NCBI GenBank assembly: GCA_020440745.1
Contig: JAGRNM010000001.1
Coordinates: 1-29,046 of the forward strand
DNA from: Deltaproteobacteria bacterium
Lineage (GTDB): Bacteria > UBA10199 > DSSB01
Length of the DNA: 29,046 nt
Reading direction: 5' to 3'
Shown here: one piece after another, positions 4,655 through 20,813 of the stretch
Layout: each line of letters begins with the position of its first letter
Numbering within the stretch: the stretch's first letter is position 1
The notes under the pieces: generated by a model
What the model saw: the letters and a program-made list of their open reading frames with translations, nothing else
Database searches by the model: none
What the model was told of the DNA's origin: nothing
Translations under genes and position numbers: made by a program

Positions 4655-4800
4655 CTGAATAAAAGACAGATCACGGGTAGGATAGAAAAAAAAGGCTCTT
4701 TCAAAACTTAAAACTCAAACAAGGCAATCAGGGCCTTTTCACTAAGGGACCGCAAGAGAAAGTTAAGCAAGCTTAGCTTTTCTCAAAAAAATCCAAGGTC

Positions 4801-4995
4801 AGGTAAGCGCGGGTAAGCAAACGGGTAAGTCACTGGGTAGGAAAACTAGGTAACCGGGTAAGCAAGCGGGTAAGTAAAATGGGTAGGAAAACTAGGTAAC
4901 CGGGTAAGCAAGCGGGTAAGTAAAATGGGTAGGAGAAGTAGGTAAGTTTACTGGGTAAGTCACTAGGTAGCTGGGTAAGCACTCAACTGGGTAAA
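4801..4995. repeat. Array of about 17 GGGTAAG-like heptamers at roughly 11-12 bp spacing, including a 46-bp tandem duplication (4835-4880 and 4881-4926, plus a diverged partial third unit)
   Basis: Heptamers GGGTAAG, GGGTAGG, AGGTAAC and AGGTAAG start at about 4801, 4811, 4823, 4835, 4848, 4856, 4868, 4881, 4894, 4902, 4914, 4927, 4939, 4953, 4965, 4972 and 4989. The unit gggtaggaaaactaggtaaccgggtaagcaagcgggtaagtaaaat is repeated exactly twice in tandem. There is no ORF of 60 aa or more on either strand. Confidence 0.8.
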
Positions 4996-5087
4996 GAAAA
5001 TGCGGGCATTTGGGCAGCCCGCAGAAATGGGCTGCCAAGGATTTTACGATAACTCCTCTTTTATCATATTCCCTTTGGGCACTCCTT

Positions 5088-5118
5088 AAGCGACCTTATT
5101 TACGGTCGCTTTTTTTTT
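5088..5118 (+). terminator. Rho-independent terminator: 8-bp stem AAGCGACC/GGTCGCTT, 8-nt loop, then a 9-T run
   Basis: Read directly: aagcgacc ttatttac ggtcgctt ttttttttt. A weaker GGAGGGC-T7 element follows at about 5172-5187. Confidence 0.55.
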
Positions 5119-5234: not shown

Positions 5235-5316
5235 TGTTTAAACATCTTGAGCTTATTTAAGACCATAATTACAGGTCCTTATTTGATTTTTTATTGTTTT
5301 TAATTTTGAGGTGGAC

Positions 5317-6225
5317 ATGAAGATTTTAGTGAGTGGTTCTAGTGGCTTAGTGGGATCTCATTTAGTTTCTCAATTAAAGGCTTCCGGTCATGAGATTGCT
5401 CGTTTGGTCCGTCATGCAGCGGATCGGGCGGTTGGCGAGATTTATTGGGAGCCCTCTCGGGGTTCTATTGATAAAGAGGCTTTGGAGGCTTTTGCTCCAG
5501 AGGCTGTCATTAATTTGGCGGGAGAAAATATTGCTTCTGGTCGTTGGACCGAGGCTAAGAAAAAAGAGATTCGGGATAGTCGAGTAGAAGGCACTAAGAT
5601 TTTGTCCAAGGCACTGGCTCATTTAAAGCTACGGCCTCAGGTTTTTATTAATGCTTCTGCTTTAGGTTATTATGGAGAACGAGGAGAAGAGTGGATGACC
5701 GAAACTTCAGAAGCTGGCCTTGGATTTTTACCAGAAGTCTGCCAAGCTTGGGAAGACGCCACTCAAGAAGCCAAGCAAGCCAAGATTCGTACTATTAATT
5801 TAAGGATTGGTATTGTCTTAAGCAAAGAAGGAGGAGCTTTAAAAAAAATGCTCACACCTTTTTGTCTGGGACTTGGTGGTGTGATGGGCAACGGTAGGCA
5901 GTTTATGAGTTGGATTGCCTTAGAGGATTTGATTCGTATCCTTCTGTTTGCTTTAGAAGAGAAGAAGCTAGAAGGCCCAGTCAATGCGGTCAGTCCCCAT
6001 CCGGTGACTAATAAGGTCTTTACCAAGACTTTGGGGAGAGTTCTTTTAAGGCCCACGATTTTTCCTATGCCTGCTTCTGTGGCTAGGATGATTTTTGGAG
6101 AAATGGCTGATGACTTGCTTTTGGCAAGTACTAGGGCCCGGCCAGAAAAATTAAAAGCGGTGGATTTTGAATTTAAGTATCCCCAATTAAAAGAAGCTCT
6201 TAAATCGATTTTGGGAAAAAAATAA
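5317..6225 (+). CDS. TIGR01777/YfcH-like NAD-dependent epimerase family protein (SDR fold with C-terminal DUF1731-like region)
   Basis: N-terminal Rossmann motif ILVSGSSGLVGSHL. The length and C-terminal region are typical of the YfcH family. The ORF track starts at GTG 5311. ATG 5317 with GAGG 5 nt upstream is the likelier start. Confidence 0.75.
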   Translation: MKILVSGSSGLVGSHLVSQLKASGHEIARLVRHAADRAVGEIYWEPSRGSIDKEALEAFAPEAVINLAGENIASGRWTEAKKKEIRDSRVEGTKILSKALAHLKLRPQVFINASALGYYGERGEEWMTETSEAGLGFLPEVCQAWEDATQEAKQAKIRTINLRIGIVLSKEGGALKKMLTPFCLGLGGVMGNGRQFMSWIALEDLIRILLFALEEKKLEGPVNAVSPHPVTNKVFTKTLGRVLLRPTIFPMPASVARMIFGEMADDLLLASTRARPEKLKAVDFEFKYPQLKEALKSILGKK

Positions 6226-6301: not shown

Positions 6302-7849
6302 ATGTCCCAACCCATCGTCAACTTAGAGGCTATTATTCAGGATCCCTATGATTTAGCCGTTGCTACAGCTCGTACTTGTTATTCGGCTAAGGGGATTATC
6401 AGAGTTCCTCAAGTTAGATCCACAGAAACAGCTAGGGTGCTTAGGGATAAGATTAGCCACTCTACTAGACAGGCCGGCCATTTAACTACTAGGCAACATG
6501 CTCACTTTGTTTTTTCTTTGGATAAGGTAAGTCGTAATTTTTTATGGTCCTTTTTACACTCCCATCCTTTTTATAATAGCGAGCAAGTCTCCCAGCGTTA
6601 TGTTAAAGTTCAGGCGGGCAACTACACGGTTCCTCCCTTAAAAGAAAAAGCCAAGACTATCTATGAGGCTTGTATCCATCGCCAGATGGAAACCTATGAG
6701 ACACTCAATCAAGTCCTCTATCCCCACGCTCAAGCTGAGTATTTAAAAGTCTTTCCTATCAGGTCAAAGCATTTAGACACCTATGCTAAAGTGATTCGCA
6801 AAAAATGTTTTGAGGTTTCTCGTTATGTTTTGCCGGTAGCCACCCATGCTTATCTGTATCACACTATTTAGGCTTTAACTTTGATGCGTTATTTTCGTTT
6901 GATGGATTATTTTGACACTCCGTGGGAACAACGTTTGGTAGTGAGTCAAATGGTGGATTTAGTTTGTGAAATAGACCCTGAGTTTAGACAAGAACTGACC
7001 GATCCTTATCCCTTAGAGGCAAGTCCTGAATATGCTTTTTTACAAAGTCAAAGACCTAATTTTTTGGCTAAGAAAGAAAGTCTAAAAGAATTTGATGAAT
7101 CTCTAAAAGGACGCCGAGCTCGTTTGATTGATTATAAGATTAATGCTCCTCAAACCTTAGCTTCAGCCGTGCGTTCGGTTTTGGGTTTAAGTGCTTCAGA
7201 AATAAGTGACGAAGCGGCGATTGCTAAAGTTTTAGACCCTCAGCAAAATTCCCAGCTGGGTGATACTTTAAATTTAAATACTCTTTCTAAGTGGGGGCGC
7301 ACTTTAATGCATCCCCATTATACTTTTAGAAAAAAAATCAGTCATACTGCTGACAGCCAAGACCAACGTCATCGGATGACTCCTGCTTCCCGTCCGGTTT
7401 TAAGCGCCCAATATAGCGGGCAGGCCGATTATATCGTGCCTAAATTAATTGAAGAAGTACCTGAGGCCGAAGAAATTTTTAAGGCTTCGATGAAAGAAAC
7501 TTTTGAGACTATTAATCAACTCTTAGAAATGGGAGTCGAAACTCAATTTGCTCTTTATTTGTTACCCAATGCTTTTCCCATTAGATTTGAAGAATCAGGT
7601 GACCTTTTAAATCTTCACCACAAATGGCATTCCCGCGCTTGCTACACGGCTCAAGAAGAAATCTTTTACGCCACGGTGGATGAGTTAGAAGAAGTCAAAG
7701 CGGTCCATCCCCAACTAGTTGAGCATATCTTGGCTCCTTGTTATTTAAGAAAAAGGGCAGGCATCCGTCCGATTTGTCCAGAAGGCGACCGTTTTTGTGG
7801 CGTCAAAGTTTGGGACAAGTCTTTAGAAGAGTATGAGCGCGTGATTTAG
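6302..7849 (+). CDS. thyX: ThyX-like flavin-dependent thymidylate synthase, long single-chain form, interrupted by an in-frame TAG at 6869-6871 (ORFs 6302-6871 and 6881-7849 are in the same frame)
   Basis: The N-terminal part carries the ThyX block ...HAHFVFSLDKVSRNFLWSFL...SEQVSQRY (SxRY motif). The downstream part carries RHR (QDQRHRMTPASRP) and the C-terminal ThyX block ALYLLPNAFPIRFEESGDLLNLHHKWHSRACYTAQEEI. Both parts are in frame 2, separated only by TAG plus 9 nt. Confidence 0.6.
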
Positions 7850-7883: not shown

Positions 7884-8270
7884 TCAAGAGCGACTTTGGT
7901 AATATTTTATCCCGGATAGAATCGCTTGTTCGGAAGCAGAAATAAGACCTCCTGCCATACTTCCTGCAATGCTTAAAGCTGGGGCAGCGTATCCGCTGAT
8001 TATTTTGGTTTTTTCCCTTTTTGCCTGACCTTCACCATAGAATTTTTCAGCCAGTTTCACTGCTTGTTCAGCCCTTCTACTAAGCTTGCCAGGATCGCTG
8101 ACCCCTTTAGTCATAAGGCCGATAAATTCATCTTTGTAGACTTGTGTGAGGGGTTTACCGCGGAAACCCATATCTTGAATAGCCAAACCGGCGATTGCTA
8201 AGTCTTTTGTTGCTTCGAATTTTTCTGAAGCAGAGGCAAAAGTATTTTTAAAACTAGTTAAAATAGACAT
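7884..8270 (-). CDS. Hypothetical protein (128 aa from the internal Met MSILTSF...)
   Basis: ORF track gives 7884-8309. That start overlaps the 3' end of the upstream permease gene, so the Met at 8270 is the more plausible start. I recognise no domain. Confidence 0.4.
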   Translation of the reverse strand: MSILTSFKNTFASASEKFEATKDLAIAGLAIQDMGFRGKPLTQVYKDEFIGLMTKGVSDPGKLSRRAEQAVKLAEKFYGEGQAKREKTKIISGYAAPALSIAGSMAGGLISASEQAILSGIKYYQSRS

Positions 8271-8280
8271 GGGGGACTCC

Positions 8281-9528
8281 TTACCAATAAATCCATGAGA
8301 CCATCGCATAAAGGGGCAATAAGATCAAGGCCGCATAAATTAAATAACTAAAAAAACCTAAGGTCTTAAAACCTTGAGCATCGGCAATGGCTTTTACCAT
8401 AAAGTTAGGACCATTACCAATATAAGATAGGGCTCCAAAAAGTACGGCCCCGGAGGAGATAGCCATTAATAGATTTTCTTGGACGCTGGCCACTAAGTTC
8501 CCTTGACTAGGTAAGCCTTGGGCCAAAGAAAAGAAAGTAAGATAAGTGGGGGCATTGTCTAAAAAGGCAGATAAGGTCCCGGTAAGCCAGAAAAAGGGCT
8601 TAGGCGAGTCAATGGCCAGGCTGGGTCCGATGGCTTTGAGTTTGAGCATGGCTGGGGTCATGGTCAGGAAAATTCCAAAAAATAAAATGGCTACTTCCCA
8701 AAGGGGTTCAAAACTAAAATGATTTTTTTCTCTGACCTTTCTAGAAGTGGTCATGAGTGAAAGTCCTAAGCTAAGCGCCAGCCCCAGCTCTCTTAAGGGG
8801 CTATCCAAAAACAAACTGCCTAAGATTAAAGCAAAGTAGAGAAGATTAATTTTTCCCTCTAATCCAAAGGCTCTTTGATTTTCTAGGGGGATGACTTGGG
8901 GAAGGGGAGAGCGACTTTCTAAGTATTTTTCCCAAAAATAAAAAATAACTAACAAGGGTAAAAGGACAGAAGCCCACACAGGAAAAAGATGGAGCGTCCA
9001 GGCAAAAGGAACTCCTTTTAAATAGCCTAAGAAAAGAGGTGGGTCTCCTAAAGGAGTCAAAAGCCCACCTGTATTGCTAACAACGAGAATAAAAAATAAA
9101 GGGCGATGGAAGTGCTCTGGTTTTTCTAAATTGGCTCTTAAAAAAGGTCTAATCAGTAACATGCTGGCGCCTGTAGTGCCAATAAGGTTGGCTAAGAGGC
9201 CGCCCAGCGCCAAAAGACCGGTATTCTTAAAGGCGCTTCCTCCTAGGGAGCCTTCTATATATAGTCCTCCGCTCACCACATAAAGACTACCGATTAAAAG
9301 AATAAAGGATAGGTATTCGTGTAGACTATGGCCTAAGGGTTCCCATTGCCCTTGTTTTAAGAAAAATGCCACTACCGGTAGGCTTAAGCCCAAGCTTAAA
9401 GCTAGGCGAAAGAGATTTTTCTCCCAAAGCTTATGCAAGAGTAAGGGAAAAATACCAATGGCTATTAATAAACTAAAAAAAGGAGCTAAAAGTAGCCAAG
9501 GCAAACTTTCTATGTTAGCGGAATCCAT
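8281..9528 (-). CDS. ArsB/NhaD-superfamily (CitMHS-like) ion transporter / permease
   Basis: 415-aa polytopic membrane protein with about 10-12 hydrophobic segments. The motif VVSNTGGLLTPLGDPPLFLGY resembles the N-x-GG...TP-x-GNP signature of ArsB/NhaD-type permeases. Confidence 0.55.
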   Translation of the reverse strand: MDSANIESLPWLLLAPFFSLLIAIGIFPLLLHKLWEKNLFRLALSLGLSLPVVAFFLKQGQWEPLGHSLHEYLSFILLIGSLYVVSGGLYIEGSLGGSAFKNTGLLALGGLLANLIGTTGASMLLIRPFLRANLEKPEHFHRPLFFILVVSNTGGLLTPLGDPPLFLGYLKGVPFAWTLHLFPVWASVLLPLLVIFYFWEKYLESRSPLPQVIPLENQRAFGLEGKINLLYFALILGSLFLDSPLRELGLALSLGLSLMTTSRKVREKNHFSFEPLWEVAILFFGIFLTMTPAMLKLKAIGPSLAIDSPKPFFWLTGTLSAFLDNAPTYLTFFSLAQGLPSQGNLVASVQENLLMAISSGAVLFGALSYIGNGPNFMVKAIADAQGFKTLGFFSYLIYAALILLPLYAMVSWIYW

Positions 9529-13232: not shown

Positions 13233-14504
<1,272 letters not shown>

Positions 14505-14623
14505 AAACAACCCTTTCAAAATAGACTTGATATACGATAGACGAAAATTGGCTCCTTTTTTAGTTAGAACAAAGGTTTCGTGTATAAGCTATCGTAGAAT
14601 TTTTTCCTAAGAGGGAAAAATTT

Positions 14624-14708
<85 letters not shown>

Positions 14709-14733
14709 TTTTTTTAGTTTTTGTTTGGTAGAT

Positions 14734-14816: not shown

Positions 14817-15665
14817 TTATTGTTTGACTAAAACCCACACGGTAGAAGTCCCTGGAGAAATAGCCATGCCTGCATTGTAGGCGTCTAAGGCTAAAAACTC
14901 TAAAGTAGTTCCAAAAGGAACAGTAATATAATTTTGTAGTCCTTGATCGGTAACAAAATCTTCATATAAAGAACCGATGACGCGACATTGGCTGGTATAC
15001 GCAAAACTAACGTTAGCAGACAGACCAGCGGTGCAAAGTAGCTTTAAAGTATCATTGACTTGTCTTTCTGCAGACCCAGGTAATTGAAAGGAAGAAACTA
15101 GATTAGAATTAGAAGTATTTTGAATAACCACTAAACCTTCTGATTGGGGAATAATGGGAGCAAGAATATTACTGTTGCTAGTGACGGTTGTTGCAACTGG
15201 CTGTCTTATACGATTAACAGTAATCAAATCAGTTGTATTTGTATTAGTCTGAATCGTATTAGCACTTAGACTATTACTGCTTACATGACCATCTACAGTC
15301 ACATCTCCAGTGGTATTAATAGTATCAGTAGAAAAATTTTCTGTATAAATGGTTCTAGAGGCTACTTCATCTAGGTTAGCAGTACCTGTTACGTTTAAGT
15401 CTTGTTCTATGGTAGCTCCACCATGAATTATAGCATCTCTTTGGACGGTTAACCTTCTGTCTGCATGGACGTTGTAGGCGTTTAAATCTCCATCGGCCAC
15501 CACATTACCTTCGGTTAAGACGTCGTTACCTACCAAAACATTGGCAGGAAAACTTTGGTCTAGATTAATAGTAAAGCTAGCCTGAGCAGAGCTTAAACCG
15601 ACTAAGCAAAATAGGGTGCTTAATAGGAGAGTTTGGAAGAGGAGTTTAGTTTTTTTATGTGTCAT
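14817..15665 (-). CDS. Secreted Thr/Ser/Asn-rich protein, paralog A of a local family; conserved C-terminal Cys-loop domain
   Basis: 282 aa. Signal peptide MTHKKTKLLFQTLLLSTLFCLVGLSSAQA. The central region has short degenerate repeats (LNVTGTANLD, INTTGDVTVDG). The C-terminal region LLCTAG...SQCRV...VPFGTTLEF aligns with the C-terminus of ORF B. Confidence 0.6.
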   Translation of the reverse strand: MTHKKTKLLFQTLLLSTLFCLVGLSSAQASFTINLDQSFPANVLVGNDVLTEGNVVADGDLNAYNVHADRRLTVQRDAIIHGGATIEQDLNVTGTANLDEVASRTIYTENFSTDTINTTGDVTVDGHVSSNSLSANTIQTNTNTTDLITVNRIRQPVATTVTSNSNILAPIIPQSEGLVVIQNTSNSNLVSSFQLPGSAERQVNDTLKLLCTAGLSANVSFAYTSQCRVIGSLYEDFVTDQGLQNYITVPFGTTLEFLALDAYNAGMAISPGTSTVWVLVKQ

Positions 15666-15921
15666 AGCCGTTTCCTTTCTGATTTACTTGAAAGAACAAC
15701 AACAATGACGCATCGCTAGGTTAGGGTATGAGTGTTGAATGGGGGCAGAGGAAAGACCCAAGCTTACTTGATTGTAAGCTCTTTGCAGTAGAATGATTGG
15801 AGTGCCTCTTGTTTCCATTGTTGGTAACCCTGCTCTCCCTCTTTTAAGATTTAATAAAAGTAAAAACTTAAAAAGGGAGCAGTAGCTTTGCGTCCCCGAG
15901 TTACCTCGGGTTTGCCTTTGT
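15663..15921 (-). promoter_or_regulatory. Conserved 5' leader/promoter module, copy A
   Basis: Boxes shared with copies B and C, read in minus-strand sense. The hairpin box is AGACAAAGGCAAACCCGAG-GUAA-CUCGGGGACGCAAAGCUACUG, with plus-strand coordinates 15895-15910 for the stem-loop. The other boxes are AGCAGGGTTACC, TGCGTCATTGTTGTTG and GAAAGGAAACGGCT-ATG. Confidence 0.5.
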
Positions 15922-16073
15922 CTTAATGGATTATTTTTAAGAGAGTGTGTCTCTTGTTTAAGAGATCTTGTAAGGGATTTTAAAAAGCGCTGTCTAGTTT
16001 TTTTTATATTTTGTTTAAAAAAAATTCATTATTTTTTGATGCATTGCATCTATTTCTTGTGACTTATTGCATT

Positions 16074-16134: not shown

Positions 16135-16827
16135 TTATCTAATTTGGAACCACTTGCCTAACATTCTTTTAAACTCAGTGGTACGACCAAAGTAGACCAT
16201 GGTGCTACTTACTTGGCTTCCATATTTATTAACGAGTGTGTCAAGGTTGTATCCAAAGCTAGTTGCTGGGGCAACGCTACAGTTTGGATAGTTGGTGTAA
16301 TATTGGACAATAATATCAGGTGCCCAACAGGTGAGGGTGACGATGGTTCCGTCTTCAACATTACTAGGTAAACGGAAAGTAGCTGTGGCTCCTGGGCTGA
16401 CACTCGCTCTCATGATCACGTGTCCTAGTTCGGTGATATTAGCATCACTATAGCTGGTGACGTTTTTATAAGGTTCAACTAGTTCACCTCGTTTTAATTT
16501 ACTTAAGTCAGCGCTTCCCGTGATAGTCGCTTGTTCAGCTACTAAAGAAACGAAGTTAGAGTTAGTTCCTGTGACTTCATTTAGGATACTAAGATTACCG
16601 ACTTCCATATCGGAAGCGATTACTTCCACACCATCTCCCCCTAGGACTAAGGTCTCACTTCCTGTAGTCCCTCCAGAGTCTATTCCTTCACTGTCGCCAG
16701 AAAGAGAAATTTGCTCGGTGGTTTTTCCTGCGTCAATGCTTTCTGCTCGGAGACTAAACGGGATGCTTAAGGCAAGCAGGAAGATTAAGGTTAAGGAACG
16801 ATGGAGTGTTTTATATTTTTGTATCAT
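16135..16827 (-). CDS. Secreted Thr/Ser/Gly-rich protein, paralog B (231 aa from Met MIQKYKTL...)
   Basis: The ORF track extends to 16956. The Met at 16827 sits directly after the conserved GAAAGGAAACGGCT RBS box and begins a signal peptide (MIQKYKTLHRSLTLIFLLALSIPFSLRAES). The C-terminal TLTCWAP...PNCSV...VYFGRTTEF aligns with paralog A. Confidence 0.6.
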   Translation of the reverse strand: MIQKYKTLHRSLTLIFLLALSIPFSLRAESIDAGKTTEQISLSGDSEGIDSGGTTGSETLVLGGDGVEVIASDMEVGNLSILNEVTGTNSNFVSLVAEQATITGSADLSKLKRGELVEPYKNVTSYSDANITELGHVIMRASVSPGATATFRLPSNVEDGTIVTLTCWAPDIIVQYYTNYPNCSVAPATSFGYNLDTLVNKYGSQVSSTMVYFGRTTEFKRMLGKWFQIR

Positions 16828-17010
16828 AGCCGTTTCCTTTCCAATGTGGTTTTGAAAAGACAAACAACAATGACGCATGACTGGGGTTAGAAAAATAATT
16901 TTTCCTTTAGGTAACCCTGCTATCCTAGTCTTTGTTTTTTGATTTCTCTTTAACAAAAACTAGGACCAGTAGCTTTGCGTCCCCGAGTTGCCTCGGGTTT
17001 GCCTTTGTCT
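16825..17010 (-). promoter_or_regulatory. Conserved 5' leader/promoter module, copy B (the shortest copy)
   Basis: It has the same ordered boxes as copies A and C. The hairpin is at 16982-16997. In minus-strand sense its loop is GCAA, where A and C have GUAA. Both are GNRA tetraloops. Confidence 0.5.
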
Positions 17011-17082
17011 AGGTTAATAGATGAACTTACAAAGATCGTCTTATTTCACTTGATTTCATTTTAAGAGATAAATACTTGCAAT

Positions 17083-17524: not shown

Positions 17525-17635
17525 ATTAAGCCCAGCGAAGTTCTTGCATATAACCATCTAAGTCATTTTGGTTCTTGAAGAACTCAATGCTGTCGGATTT
17601 TTTAAAGAGGTTTTTGATTGCGTTTAGTTTAGTCA
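17525..17635 (-). CDS. 36-codon ORF (MTKLNAIKNLFKKSDSIEFFKNQNDLDGYMQELRWA) directly behind leader module C
   Basis: Its ATG sits in the same position relative to GAAAGGAAACGGCT as the starts of paralogs A and B. It ends at TAA 17525-17527. It has no signal peptide and is below the ORF-track cutoff. Confidence 0.3.
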
Positions 17636-17877
17636 TAGCCGTTTCCTTTCCAATTGGGTTTTGAAAAAGACAACAACAATGACGCTTAGCTTTTACTTAA
17701 GAAGAGGACTCTCTAAGGGAGAGGGAATTTTTTAGATTCCAAGTCGGAGGTTTTTTAAGACTTCGACTTCCATCTTAGGTAACCCTGCTATCCTAGTCTT
17801 TGTTTTTTGATTTCTCTCTAACAAAAGCTAGGACCAGTAGCTTTGCGTCCCCGAGTTACCTCGGGTTTGCCTTTGTC
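17633..17877 (-). promoter_or_regulatory. Conserved 5' leader/promoter module, copy C (carries an extra insert of about 90 nt relative to B)
   Basis: The boxes are near-identical to those of B: 17781-17877 matches 16909-17008 at almost every base. The hairpin is at 17849-17864 with loop GUAA in minus sense. Confidence 0.5.
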
Positions 17878-18208
17878 TAATGGATTGTCAATTTTAGCTT
17901 TTAACGAAGTTTTAGGTTTTTAAGAACCCTAGCGTTTTTTCGTTATCAACTAAAAAAAATTTTAAGAGTTAAAACTAAGAACTGTCAAATTTTTTTTTAA
18001 ATAAGTTTAATAAAAACGCTAGCATAAAAACGTACAGATCTAACAATTGCCTTATTTGGCGCGGGTTTTAAAAGAATTATTTTTTTAAAAAAATTATTAA
18101 TTTTTTATCTTTTTAAAGTCTGTAAAAGTTTGAAAGTGAAAAAAAGGGCTTGTTGATTTTAAAATTAATGAAGCTTTTTGATTTTTAATTGGCTTTAAAA
18201 GATTGTTC

Positions 18209-19364: not shown

Positions 19365-19520
19365 GGATCCTCCTTATGGTCTAAAATAGGGTCAACAGCT
19401 TATTCTACATATTAGTTTTTTACATGGAGTGTCTAGTCTTTAGTGATTATTTTGGCTTTTTGGTCTAGCTAAGAAGCTTATTTGACAAAAGTTTCGCTTT
19501 ATGGCGTTTTCCCCCTACTC

Positions 19521-20813
19521 ATGTCTTTTCAACGTTCTAAAAATCTTTTTAAGAAAGCTCAGGCCCTCATGCCCGGGGGTGTTAATTCTCCTGTACGGGC
19601 TTTTAAGTCCGTGGGTGGATCACCTCTATTTTTTGTACAAGCAAAAGGGGCTTATCTCAAAGATTGTGATGGTAATGACTATGTGGATTATGTGGGCTCT
19701 TGGGGACCGATGATTTTGGGACACGCCCATCCTAAAGTGATTGCGGCGGTCCAAGAGACAGCTGCTAAAGGTCTAAGCTTTGGAGCGCCCTGTGAGTTGG
19801 AGATTAAATTAGCTCAAGAGGTGACTAAGCGTGTAGAAATGGACTGGGTACGCATGGTTAATAGCGGAACAGAAGCTTTGATGGGGGCACTACGTTTAGC
19901 AAGGGGAGTCACTGGTAAAAACAAAATTATTAAATTTTCTGGTTGTTATCACGGTCATGCTGATTATCTTTTGGTAGAAGCTGGCAGTGGGGCTTTAACC
20001 TTTGGTCAGCCCAATAGTTTGGGCGTGCCTAAGGAGATGGTGACCCATACTTTGGTGGCACCTTACAATGACTTAGATAGAGTGAGTCACTTGGTTAAAA
20101 AATATGGCAAGGATCTAGCTGCTATTGTGGTGGAGCCCATCGCTGGCAATATGGGTTTGGTCTTGCCGGAAAAAGGTTTTTTAGAGGGTCTTAAAAAGCT
20201 TGCTCATCAAGTGGGTGCCTTATTGGTTTTTGATGAAGTGATGACAGGTTTTCGTGTCGGATGGGGTGGAGCGCAAACTTATTTAGGTCTTAAACCTGAT
20301 TTAATTACTTTAGGTAAAATTTTGGGTGGAGGTTTGCCCGTGGGGGCTTATGGTGGAAAGACTAAGTATAAAAAAGCCTTAAGCCCAGAAGGAGGCGTCT
20401 ATCAAGCGGGGACTCTATCGGGTAATCCTGTTGCTATGGCAGCGGGTTTGGCAACTTTAAAGCTTTTAAAGACAAGCAGTTACCCTAGCTTAGCCCAAAA
20501 GACTAAGCGCCTTGCCTTGGGCTTGAAGCGTTTGGCCGAAGAAGCTAATGTGTCCGTGCAAGTGCCCTGGGTTCCGGGGATGTTGGCTCTTTATTTTAGT
20601 GAGCAAGTAGTAAAAAATTTAAAAGAAGCTCAGTCCAGTCAGGTAGAGCTTTTTAAACTCTTTTTTCATGCCATGCTTAAAAAAGGGATTTATCTACCAC
20701 CCAGTCCTTACGAGGCTTGGTTTCCTTCTTTAGCCCATGGAGAAAACGAGATTGCTTTAACTTTGAGAGCAGCTAAGCTTAGTTTTAGAGAGATTAAAGC
20801 TAAGAAAAAATAG
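19521..20813 (+). CDS. hemL: Glutamate-1-semialdehyde 2,1-aminomutase
   Basis: Near-colinear match to known HemL. Motifs include MPGGVNSPVRAF, DYVGSWGPMILGH, MVNSGTEA, IIKFSGCYHGHAD, DEVMTGFRV and the LGKILGGGLPVGA pyridoxal-Lys region. The start is taken at Met MSFQRS.... The ORF track's 19482 start adds 13 unlikely residues. Confidence 0.9.
   Translation: MSFQRSKNLFKKAQALMPGGVNSPVRAFKSVGGSPLFFVQAKGAYLKDCDGNDYVDYVGSWGPMILGHAHPKVIAAVQETAAKGLSFGAPCELEIKLAQEVTKRVEMDWVRMVNSGTEALMGALRLARGVTGKNKIIKFSGCYHGHADYLLVEAGSGALTFGQPNSLGVPKEMVTHTLVAPYNDLDRVSHLVKKYGKDLAAIVVEPIAGNMGLVLPEKGFLEGLKKLAHQVGALLVFDEVMTGFRVGWGGAQTYLGLKPDLITLGKILGGGLPVGAYGGKTKYKKALSPEGGVYQAGTLSGNPVAMAAGLATLKLLKTSSYPSLAQKTKRLALGLKRLAEEANVSVQVPWVPGMLALYFSEQVVKNLKEAQSSQVELFKLFFHAMLKKGIYLPPSPYEAWFPSLAHGENEIALTLRAAKLSFREIKAKKK

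Follow-up and report, generated by a model that had tools for sequence, protein, structure and literature searches.

A long-form thyX gene interrupted by a probably accidental in-frame amber codon in an uncultured deltaproteobacterial contig

Locus and reading frame

We examined a stretch of 29,046 nucleotides (nt), called the window here, comprising positions 1 to 29,046 of contig JAGRNM010000001.1 in an assembly labelled Deltaproteobacteria bacterium (GCA_020440745.1; GTDB lineage UBA10199, DSSB01). The window holds a gene for the FAD-dependent thymidylate synthase ThyX that is interrupted by an in-frame amber (TAG) codon. Two open reading frames (ORFs), 6302-6871 and 6881-7849, lie in one frame that starts with the ATG at 6302, and their joined reading is a protein of 515 amino acids (aa). 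The features at the locus are these:

5311..6225, + strand: gene for an NAD-dependent epimerase with a DUF1731 domain (Pfam matches), the upstream neighbour of thyX and a synteny anchor
6302..6868, + strand: 5' part of thyX, codons 1-189, encoding most of ThyX domain 1 (Pfam Thy1, 1.2e-19)
6590..6601, + strand: SQRY (Ser97, Gln98, Arg99, Tyr100), the SxRY half of the ThyX motif, upstream of the internal TAG
6869..6871, + strand: internal in-frame TAG, codon 190, in place of a conserved Ser; equivalent of Asn163 of Thermotoga maritima ThyX (TmThyX)
6872..7846, + strand: 3' part of thyX, codons 191-515, encoding the last helices of domain 1, a linker and the whole of domain 2 (Pfam Thy1, 1e-28)
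6881..6886, + strand: TTG ATG, by alignment the conserved Leu194-Met195 within ...SALTLMRY..., which mimics the start of a second ORF
7367..7375, + strand: RHR (Arg356, His357, Arg358), the RHR half of the ThyX motif, present in domain 2 only and downstream of the internal TAG
7634..7636, + strand: Arg445, the invariant domain 2 equivalent of TmThyX Arg174 by profile alignment
7847..7849, + strand: thyX terminator, also TAG, at the conserved family C-terminus ...YERVI (24/24 homologues)

An earlier reading of this DNA, made by a model without database searches (the sequence-only reading), had described two same-frame ORFs split by the TAG at 6869-6871 and three sense codons, and sequence and frame agree with that description. 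The codons that follow the internal TAG are GCT TTA ACT, then TTG at 6881 and ATG at 6884, and the frame stays open until the TAG at 7847-7849. An uninterrupted full-length thyX frame is thus missing owing to one codon, and the frame contains neither frameshifts nor additional stops. On the + strand of the window the internal thyX TAG is the sole stop flanked by at least 100 open codons on each side; the - strand has one further stop with long open flanks, a TAA at 15684-15686 that lies within a riboswitch leader. Pfam scans of the other 24 window ORFs of at least 100 aa found neither thyA nor a second thyX, which bears out the earlier remark that the window shows no thyA.

A long-form, two-domain ThyX

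The Pfam family Thy1 (PF02511, cut-off 24.8 bits) is matched by the two pieces separately at 71.3 and 100.9 bits and by the joined reading at 180.8 bits. The joined reading matches Thy1 twice (3.2e-53), as a tandem of two ThyX domains. The first piece spans profile positions 6-153 of 191, and the 3' piece, at its residues 84-281, spans the whole profile (1-191 of 191). Since the match of the first piece breaks off at profile position 153 of 191, the internal TAG falls within domain 1 and not between the domains. The equivalog model for thyX in NCBIfam, TIGR02170, has a cut-off of 87.9 bits, which the joined reading exceeds (92.9 bits) and the ORFs as encoded do not reach (41.2 and 45.1 bits).

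We used the joined reading as query against 5.8 billion proteins, which gave 6651 matches at E <=1e-5, and the best 120 of these are described here. Almost all are 508-550 aa long, with coverage of 99-100% and identity of up to 72%, and full-length homologues of about 517-525 aa are collinear with the joined reading over 99-100% of its length. The named sources among the best 120 are annotated 'FAD-dependent thymidylate synthase' and come from metagenome-assembled genomes (MAGs) labelled Deltaproteobacteria, Bdellovibrionota or Omnitrophica. Among GTDB representative genomes the sole match was in MAG HK-STAS-UBA10199-1 (68% identity), and a scan of metagenomes yielded four loci, none above 73% identity. 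Look-ups for identical copies of the 189-aa ORF, of serS and of the CitMHS_2 transporter gave none. The 5' part shares 66-74% identity with the N-terminal portions of full-length homologues. When the 3' piece alone served as query, 110 of its best 120 matches were full-length proteins (500-549 aa); homologues that end near residue 189, with a separate protein beginning at the position of 6881, had been put forward as an outcome that would make the two ORFs distinct genes, and this count goes against it.

Because uninterrupted homologues abound at 99-100% coverage, the predicted natural ThyX product at this locus is one chain of about 515 aa. The sequence-only reading had likewise proposed a single long ThyX-like protein of about that size, and the double Thy1 match and full-length collinearity carry this proposal. 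Long-form ThyX is a widespread and routinely annotated family, of which the window copy is a new orthologue. The earlier hint at chlamydial ancestry did not hold up: the named relatives belong to 'Deltaproteobacteria'/UBA10199, Bdellovibrionota and Omnitrophica MAGs, no chlamydial protein was seen among the best 120 matches either to the joined reading or to the 3' piece, and a chlamydial lineage for the window is not supported by these similarities.

The window and its relatives have in common the order epimerase, thyX, then genes of 139, 275 and 237 aa: the epimerase/DUF1731 gene also stands upstream of thyX in five related loci (L002, L003, L005, L006 and L012), and the three downstream genes recur in four (L002, L005, L010 and L012). 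The window thyX occupies the orthologous locus. Beside it lies a lineage-specific insertion on the - strand (7884-9528), consisting of a 141-aa ORF with no family match (7884-8309) and a CitMHS_2 transporter gene (8281-9528); in the relatives the 139-aa gene follows thyX directly, without these two genes.

Motifs divided between the two halves

As the sequence-only reading had placed them, SxRY (6590-6601) precedes the internal stop and RHR (7367-7375) follows it. Profile alignment to TmThyX equates Ser97, Arg99 and Tyr100 with Ser88, Arg90 and Tyr91. Domain 1 keeps SxRY but has LHSH where RHR would stand, and its counterparts of Arg165 and Arg174 are Leu and Met. In domain 2, RHR (Arg356-His357-Arg358) and Arg445 (= Arg174) are kept, while its SxRY is changed to SAQY by replacement of Arg with Gln. 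Neither domain has a contiguous RHRx7SxRY, and the motif is complete only across both halves. The same division is found in uninterrupted homologues and is a trait of the long form, not specific to the window copy. S97, Q98 and R99 are invariant in 59 sequences, and so are R356, H357, R358 and Arg445. Placement of the domain 2 motifs comes from phmmer and profile alignments, a three-sequence MAFFT alignment to TmThyX having misplaced the RHR region; phmmer aligns Arg356-His357-Arg358 to the RHR of Corynebacterium glutamicum ThyX (3fnn). Solved structures of T. maritima mutants target the equivalent residues (S88A, R90A, Y91F and R174A/K).

In canonical ThyX the active site is formed where three subunits of a homotetramer meet (PMC5954106). 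From the distribution of the motifs we infer that the long form would work as a pair of pseudo-dimers, whose composite sites would require both halves. With SxRY in the first half, and RHR and the Arg174 equivalent in the second, the 189-aa fragment alone would not be expected to be active as a thymidylate synthase, and the same goes for a product restarted at Met195. The complementary degeneration of the two halves suggests that a pseudo-tetramer would have two active sites rather than four. Also invariant in the family is a C-terminal tail rich in Cys (C480, C492-P-E-G-x-R-x-C499-G), which may hold a metal or redox site.

The residue replaced by the stop codon

In an alignment of 24 full-length homologues the column of the TAG holds Ser in 23 and Asn in one, inside the conserved block YLYHT[IV]-S-ALTL[ML]RY of domain 1. 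Whether the junction lay within a conserved block had been named as a check on the interruption, and it does. The domain 1 profile aligned to TmThyX sets this Ser opposite Asn163 (the T. maritima sequence used is identical to PDB 1kq4). In an AlphaFold model of the closest orthologue, P0001, which is 72% identical to the window protein and stands in for it here (pLDDT 85.4, pTM 0.83), the position is the final residue of a core beta-strand, directly before a helix.

Codon 190 was read in ten related loci, which represent eight distinct homologues as L002-L004 encode the same protein. Nine of the loci (L001-L007, L011 and L012) have AGC or AGT and the tenth, L010, whose product is 71% identical, has TCG; a stop was found at this codon in none of the ten. 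TCG becomes TAG by a single C-to-A transversion, whereas from AGY it would take three changes, or two indels that compensate each other. The most economical origin of the TAG at Ser190 would be such a one-step change from TCG.

Nature of the interruption

We conclude that the internal TAG is very probably an isolated, unprogrammed and accidental nonsense codon, whether a young mutation, a strain variant or an assembly error. The gene is otherwise free of decay. The window copy agrees with the 24 homologues at all 141 of their invariant columns, 57/57 before the TAG and 84/84 after it. Identity before and after the TAG is 0.715 and 0.684 for the window copy, in a ratio similar to that among intact homologues (0.778 and 0.736). 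The gene has evidently been under purifying selection until essentially now, and the lack of decay is compatible with a lesion whose age is near zero, with an artefact or with a gene still expressed. No other window ORF is interrupted, and well-matched neighbours such as ilvD, the CitMHS_2 transporter, serS and a fatty-acid desaturase match their Pfam profiles from one end to the other, so that errors do not pervade the assembly in general. A real young mutation and a consensus or assembly error are indistinguishable from sequence alone, and we hold them to be about equally probable. Read literally, translation would end after residue 189, with loss of the last domain 1 helices and the whole of domain 2.

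Three points weigh against an accidental lesion. A cell with no other thymidylate synthase normally cannot do without thyX, and a fixed null is unexpected; this speaks for an error, for a variant carried by a minority, for redundancy (thyA or salvage) or for residual expression. The ATG at 6884 lies 12 nt past the TAG, so that a two-piece product is physically possible. Finally, most close relatives use AGY Ser codons, and the one-step path from TCG depends on L010 alone.

A second disrupted family member was seen at L014 1-160 (ENA contig k141_117427), with an in-frame TAG (...KKPAYQ*TRY...) 18 codons upstream of the site in the window. It sits among several atypical substitutions in an error-prone-looking stretch and is probably a low-coverage assembly error or a pseudogene. 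Sporadic disruptions of long-form thyX do occur in metagenome assemblies.

Alternative readings of the stop codon

Two of the remaining readings would let the gene yield an active product in spite of the stop. A two-piece enzyme made by restart and an enzyme made by amber readthrough are unlikely even when taken jointly. It is quite unlikely that the TAG is real and fixed and that active enzyme is still made, through a restart at Met195 or through low-level amber readthrough at the site equivalent to Asn163. Restart or readthrough, were either to operate, would make this the first known thymidylate synthase to be maintained with a broken frame.

The better of these is a functional split, in which translation stops at TAG 6869-6871 and restarts at TTG 6881 or ATG 6884, and fragments of 189 aa and roughly 321 aa assemble non-covalently into active ThyX. 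We rate it decidedly unlikely. A start codon does lie 9-12 nt past the stop, with a weak AGG, made by TAG-G itself, 8 nt before TTG 6881 (a similar weak AGG precedes the real start), and restart would cost only about 5 residues. ThyX is moreover an obligate oligomer with inter-subunit active sites (PMC5954106), so fragments might associate. However, the cut goes through the domain 1 core, where a strand passes into the helix after it in the orthologue model, and not through the inter-domain linker, and TTG 6881 and ATG 6884 are ordinary codons for the conserved Leu194 and Met195. The perfect conservation of the downstream part is what continued expression would give, but a zero-age lesion or an error predicts it equally well.

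Homologues bear on the split as well. Among the best 120 matches to the 3' piece we found no homologue naturally split at this position, and no short match starting at Met195. Two short matches begin near the same residue and were viewed on their contigs. P0125 (327 aa) starts 30 nt from a contig end, adjoining non-ThyX sequence; P0123 (332 aa) begins after another in-frame TAG, one that lies 18 codons further upstream among several odd substitutions, where the sequence looks error-prone. With a contig end behind one and a separate disruption behind the other, there is no sign of a recurrent split site. Four more short matches lie on contigs of <2.5 kb; the contig inspection stopped short of P0121 and P0130 (contigs of 175 kb and 66 kb) and the remaining ones.

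Decoding of the TAG, whether by programmed or leaky readthrough, suppression by a tRNA-CUA or pyrrolysine insertion, would give a full-length protein with a residue at 190, and is in our view highly improbable. The frame is open and apparently under purifying selection on both sides of the TAG, and TAG is rare as a terminator in the window: the 26 ORFs end in TAA (22), TAG (3, the internal one included) and TGA (1), leaving two true TAG terminators among 25 genes, those of thyX (7847-7849) and of ORF 19482-20813. Yet thyX itself terminates with TAG exactly at the family C-terminus, and no other in-frame TAG occurs in about 25 kb of coding sequence. All ten related loci have a Ser codon at the site, which is small and polar (Ser or Asn in homologues) in an FAD-side region where the bulky pyrrolysine would be odd. 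Neither a tRNA-CUA nor pyrrolysine (Pyl) genes were found in the 29-kb window, whose sole tRNA is tRNA-Ser(UGA). There is no stable RNA structure downstream of the TAG either. The region 6860-6990 (131 nt) has a folding energy of -26.8 kcal/mol where shuffles give -25.9 +/- 3.5 (z = -0.25), and since it folds no better than shuffles we rejected it as a readthrough-stimulating structure.

Genome-wide reassignment of TAG was rejected too, in line with the sequence-only reading, which had thought it unlikely: the terminal TAG stands at the family C-terminus ...YERVI, and no other gene is split by TAG. Recoding, pyrrolysine and programmed readthrough are unsupported here. Error, pseudogene and readthrough had all been offered as explanations of the interruption; the data argue against programmed readthrough, with error and young mutation about equally probable.

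That two separate genes encode a short N-terminal ThyX-like protein and a C-terminal one, as mechanical ORF calling yields, has a nearly negligible chance, given a break within the Pfam domain (profile position 153 of 191), homologues that run continuously across it, and ORFs neither of which alone reaches the TIGR02170 cut-off.

For annotation, both ORFs are best recorded as one disrupted thyX (pseudo or 'internal stop') rather than as a pair of ThyX-like proteins. Should the stop be real and thyX the sole thymidylate synthase, the organism would have to rely on salvaged thymidine or on another enzyme; thymidine dependence, if true, would be a metabolic clue for an uncultured lineage.

Other features of the window

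Two groups of noncoding elements were found elsewhere in the window, together with a tRNA gene:

15819-15925, 16906-17012 and 17774-17880, - strand: three c-di-GMP-I-GGC variant riboswitch aptamers (Rfam RF03167; 63-69 bits against a gathering threshold of 59)
4797-4995, + strand: GGGTAAG heptamer array in the ORF-free spacer between ilvD and the epimerase gene
13233-14709, + strand: serS, with the tRNA-Ser(UGA) gene immediately after it

The cores of the three aptamers are almost identical over about 100 nt. Two aptamers precede ORFs 14817-15665 and 16135-16956, which have no Pfam match and are not detectably paralogous, and after the third there is only a 36-aa ORF (17526-17636). ORF 16135-16956 is listed with a TTG start that falls inside an aptamer, and for this reason its true start is probably further downstream.

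The heptamer array has eight exact copies of GGGTAAG together with GGTA(A/G)G-like variants (roughly 18 by eye), at a spacing of about 11-12 nt; the whole window has 13 exact copies against 3.6 expected. TRF reports a period-46 unit in this region (3.1 copies, 92% match). Two hairpins follow the array, at 5008-5036 and 5083-5110, a GC hairpin and a terminator-like one with a T-run. The heptamer region itself does not exceed shuffles in structure (z = +1.2), and Rfam gave no match to it at the gathering threshold. It could act as a protein-sequestering small RNA with a repeat motif, or as a series of binding sites in the DNA.

Comparison with known systems

Ordinary nonsense pseudogenes and assembly-derived in-frame stops resemble the window copy in having a single premature stop at a conserved sense position, unconserved in relatives and with no recoding apparatus. 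Unlike ordinary nonsense pseudogenes, the window gene is of a usually essential kind and without further decay.

The closest known proteins are the long-form ThyX of uncultured 'Deltaproteobacteria'/UBA10199, Bdellovibrionota and Omnitrophica MAGs, collinear over 99-100% at 53-72% identity; examples are P0012 (HK-STAS-UBA10199-1, contig JACKPJ010000001.1) and P0087 (RIFCSPHIGHO2_12_FULL_43_9). They and the window copy alike have two Thy1 domains, the same split of motifs, a CPEGDRFCG tail and an upstream epimerase/DUF1731 gene. They differ in that the relatives have Ser190 where the window copy has TAG, and the window copy has two extra genes downstream. Chlamydial ThyX (the product of CT632 in Chlamydia trachomatis), which is about 530 aa long, may have the same doubled architecture.

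Canonical single-domain ThyX, such as that of T. maritima (TM0449; PDB 1kq4, 1o26) or Mycobacterium tuberculosis (2af6, 3gwc), has the Pfam Thy1 domain in common with the long form. No solved chain is more than marginally similar to the long form in sequence (E about 1e-5, 15-18% identity). Each half of the P0001 model superposes on ThyX structures in the PDB with probability 1.00 and a target-normalised TM-score of 0.65-0.73, and all best matches are ThyX. Searches of the PDB by sequence and by fold found no solved two-domain ThyX, and returned only single-domain chains that each match one half. A long-form ThyX with complementary degeneration of its halves and no solved structure may merit structural study, as a matter of the family and not of the stop codon. 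The equivalents of canonical Ser88, Arg90, Tyr91, RHR 78-80 and Arg174 are all present somewhere in the long-form chain. Canonical ThyX is a homotetramer of subunits of about 220-250 aa, each with the whole RHRx7SxRY motif, whereas the long form consists of two fused and diverged copies.

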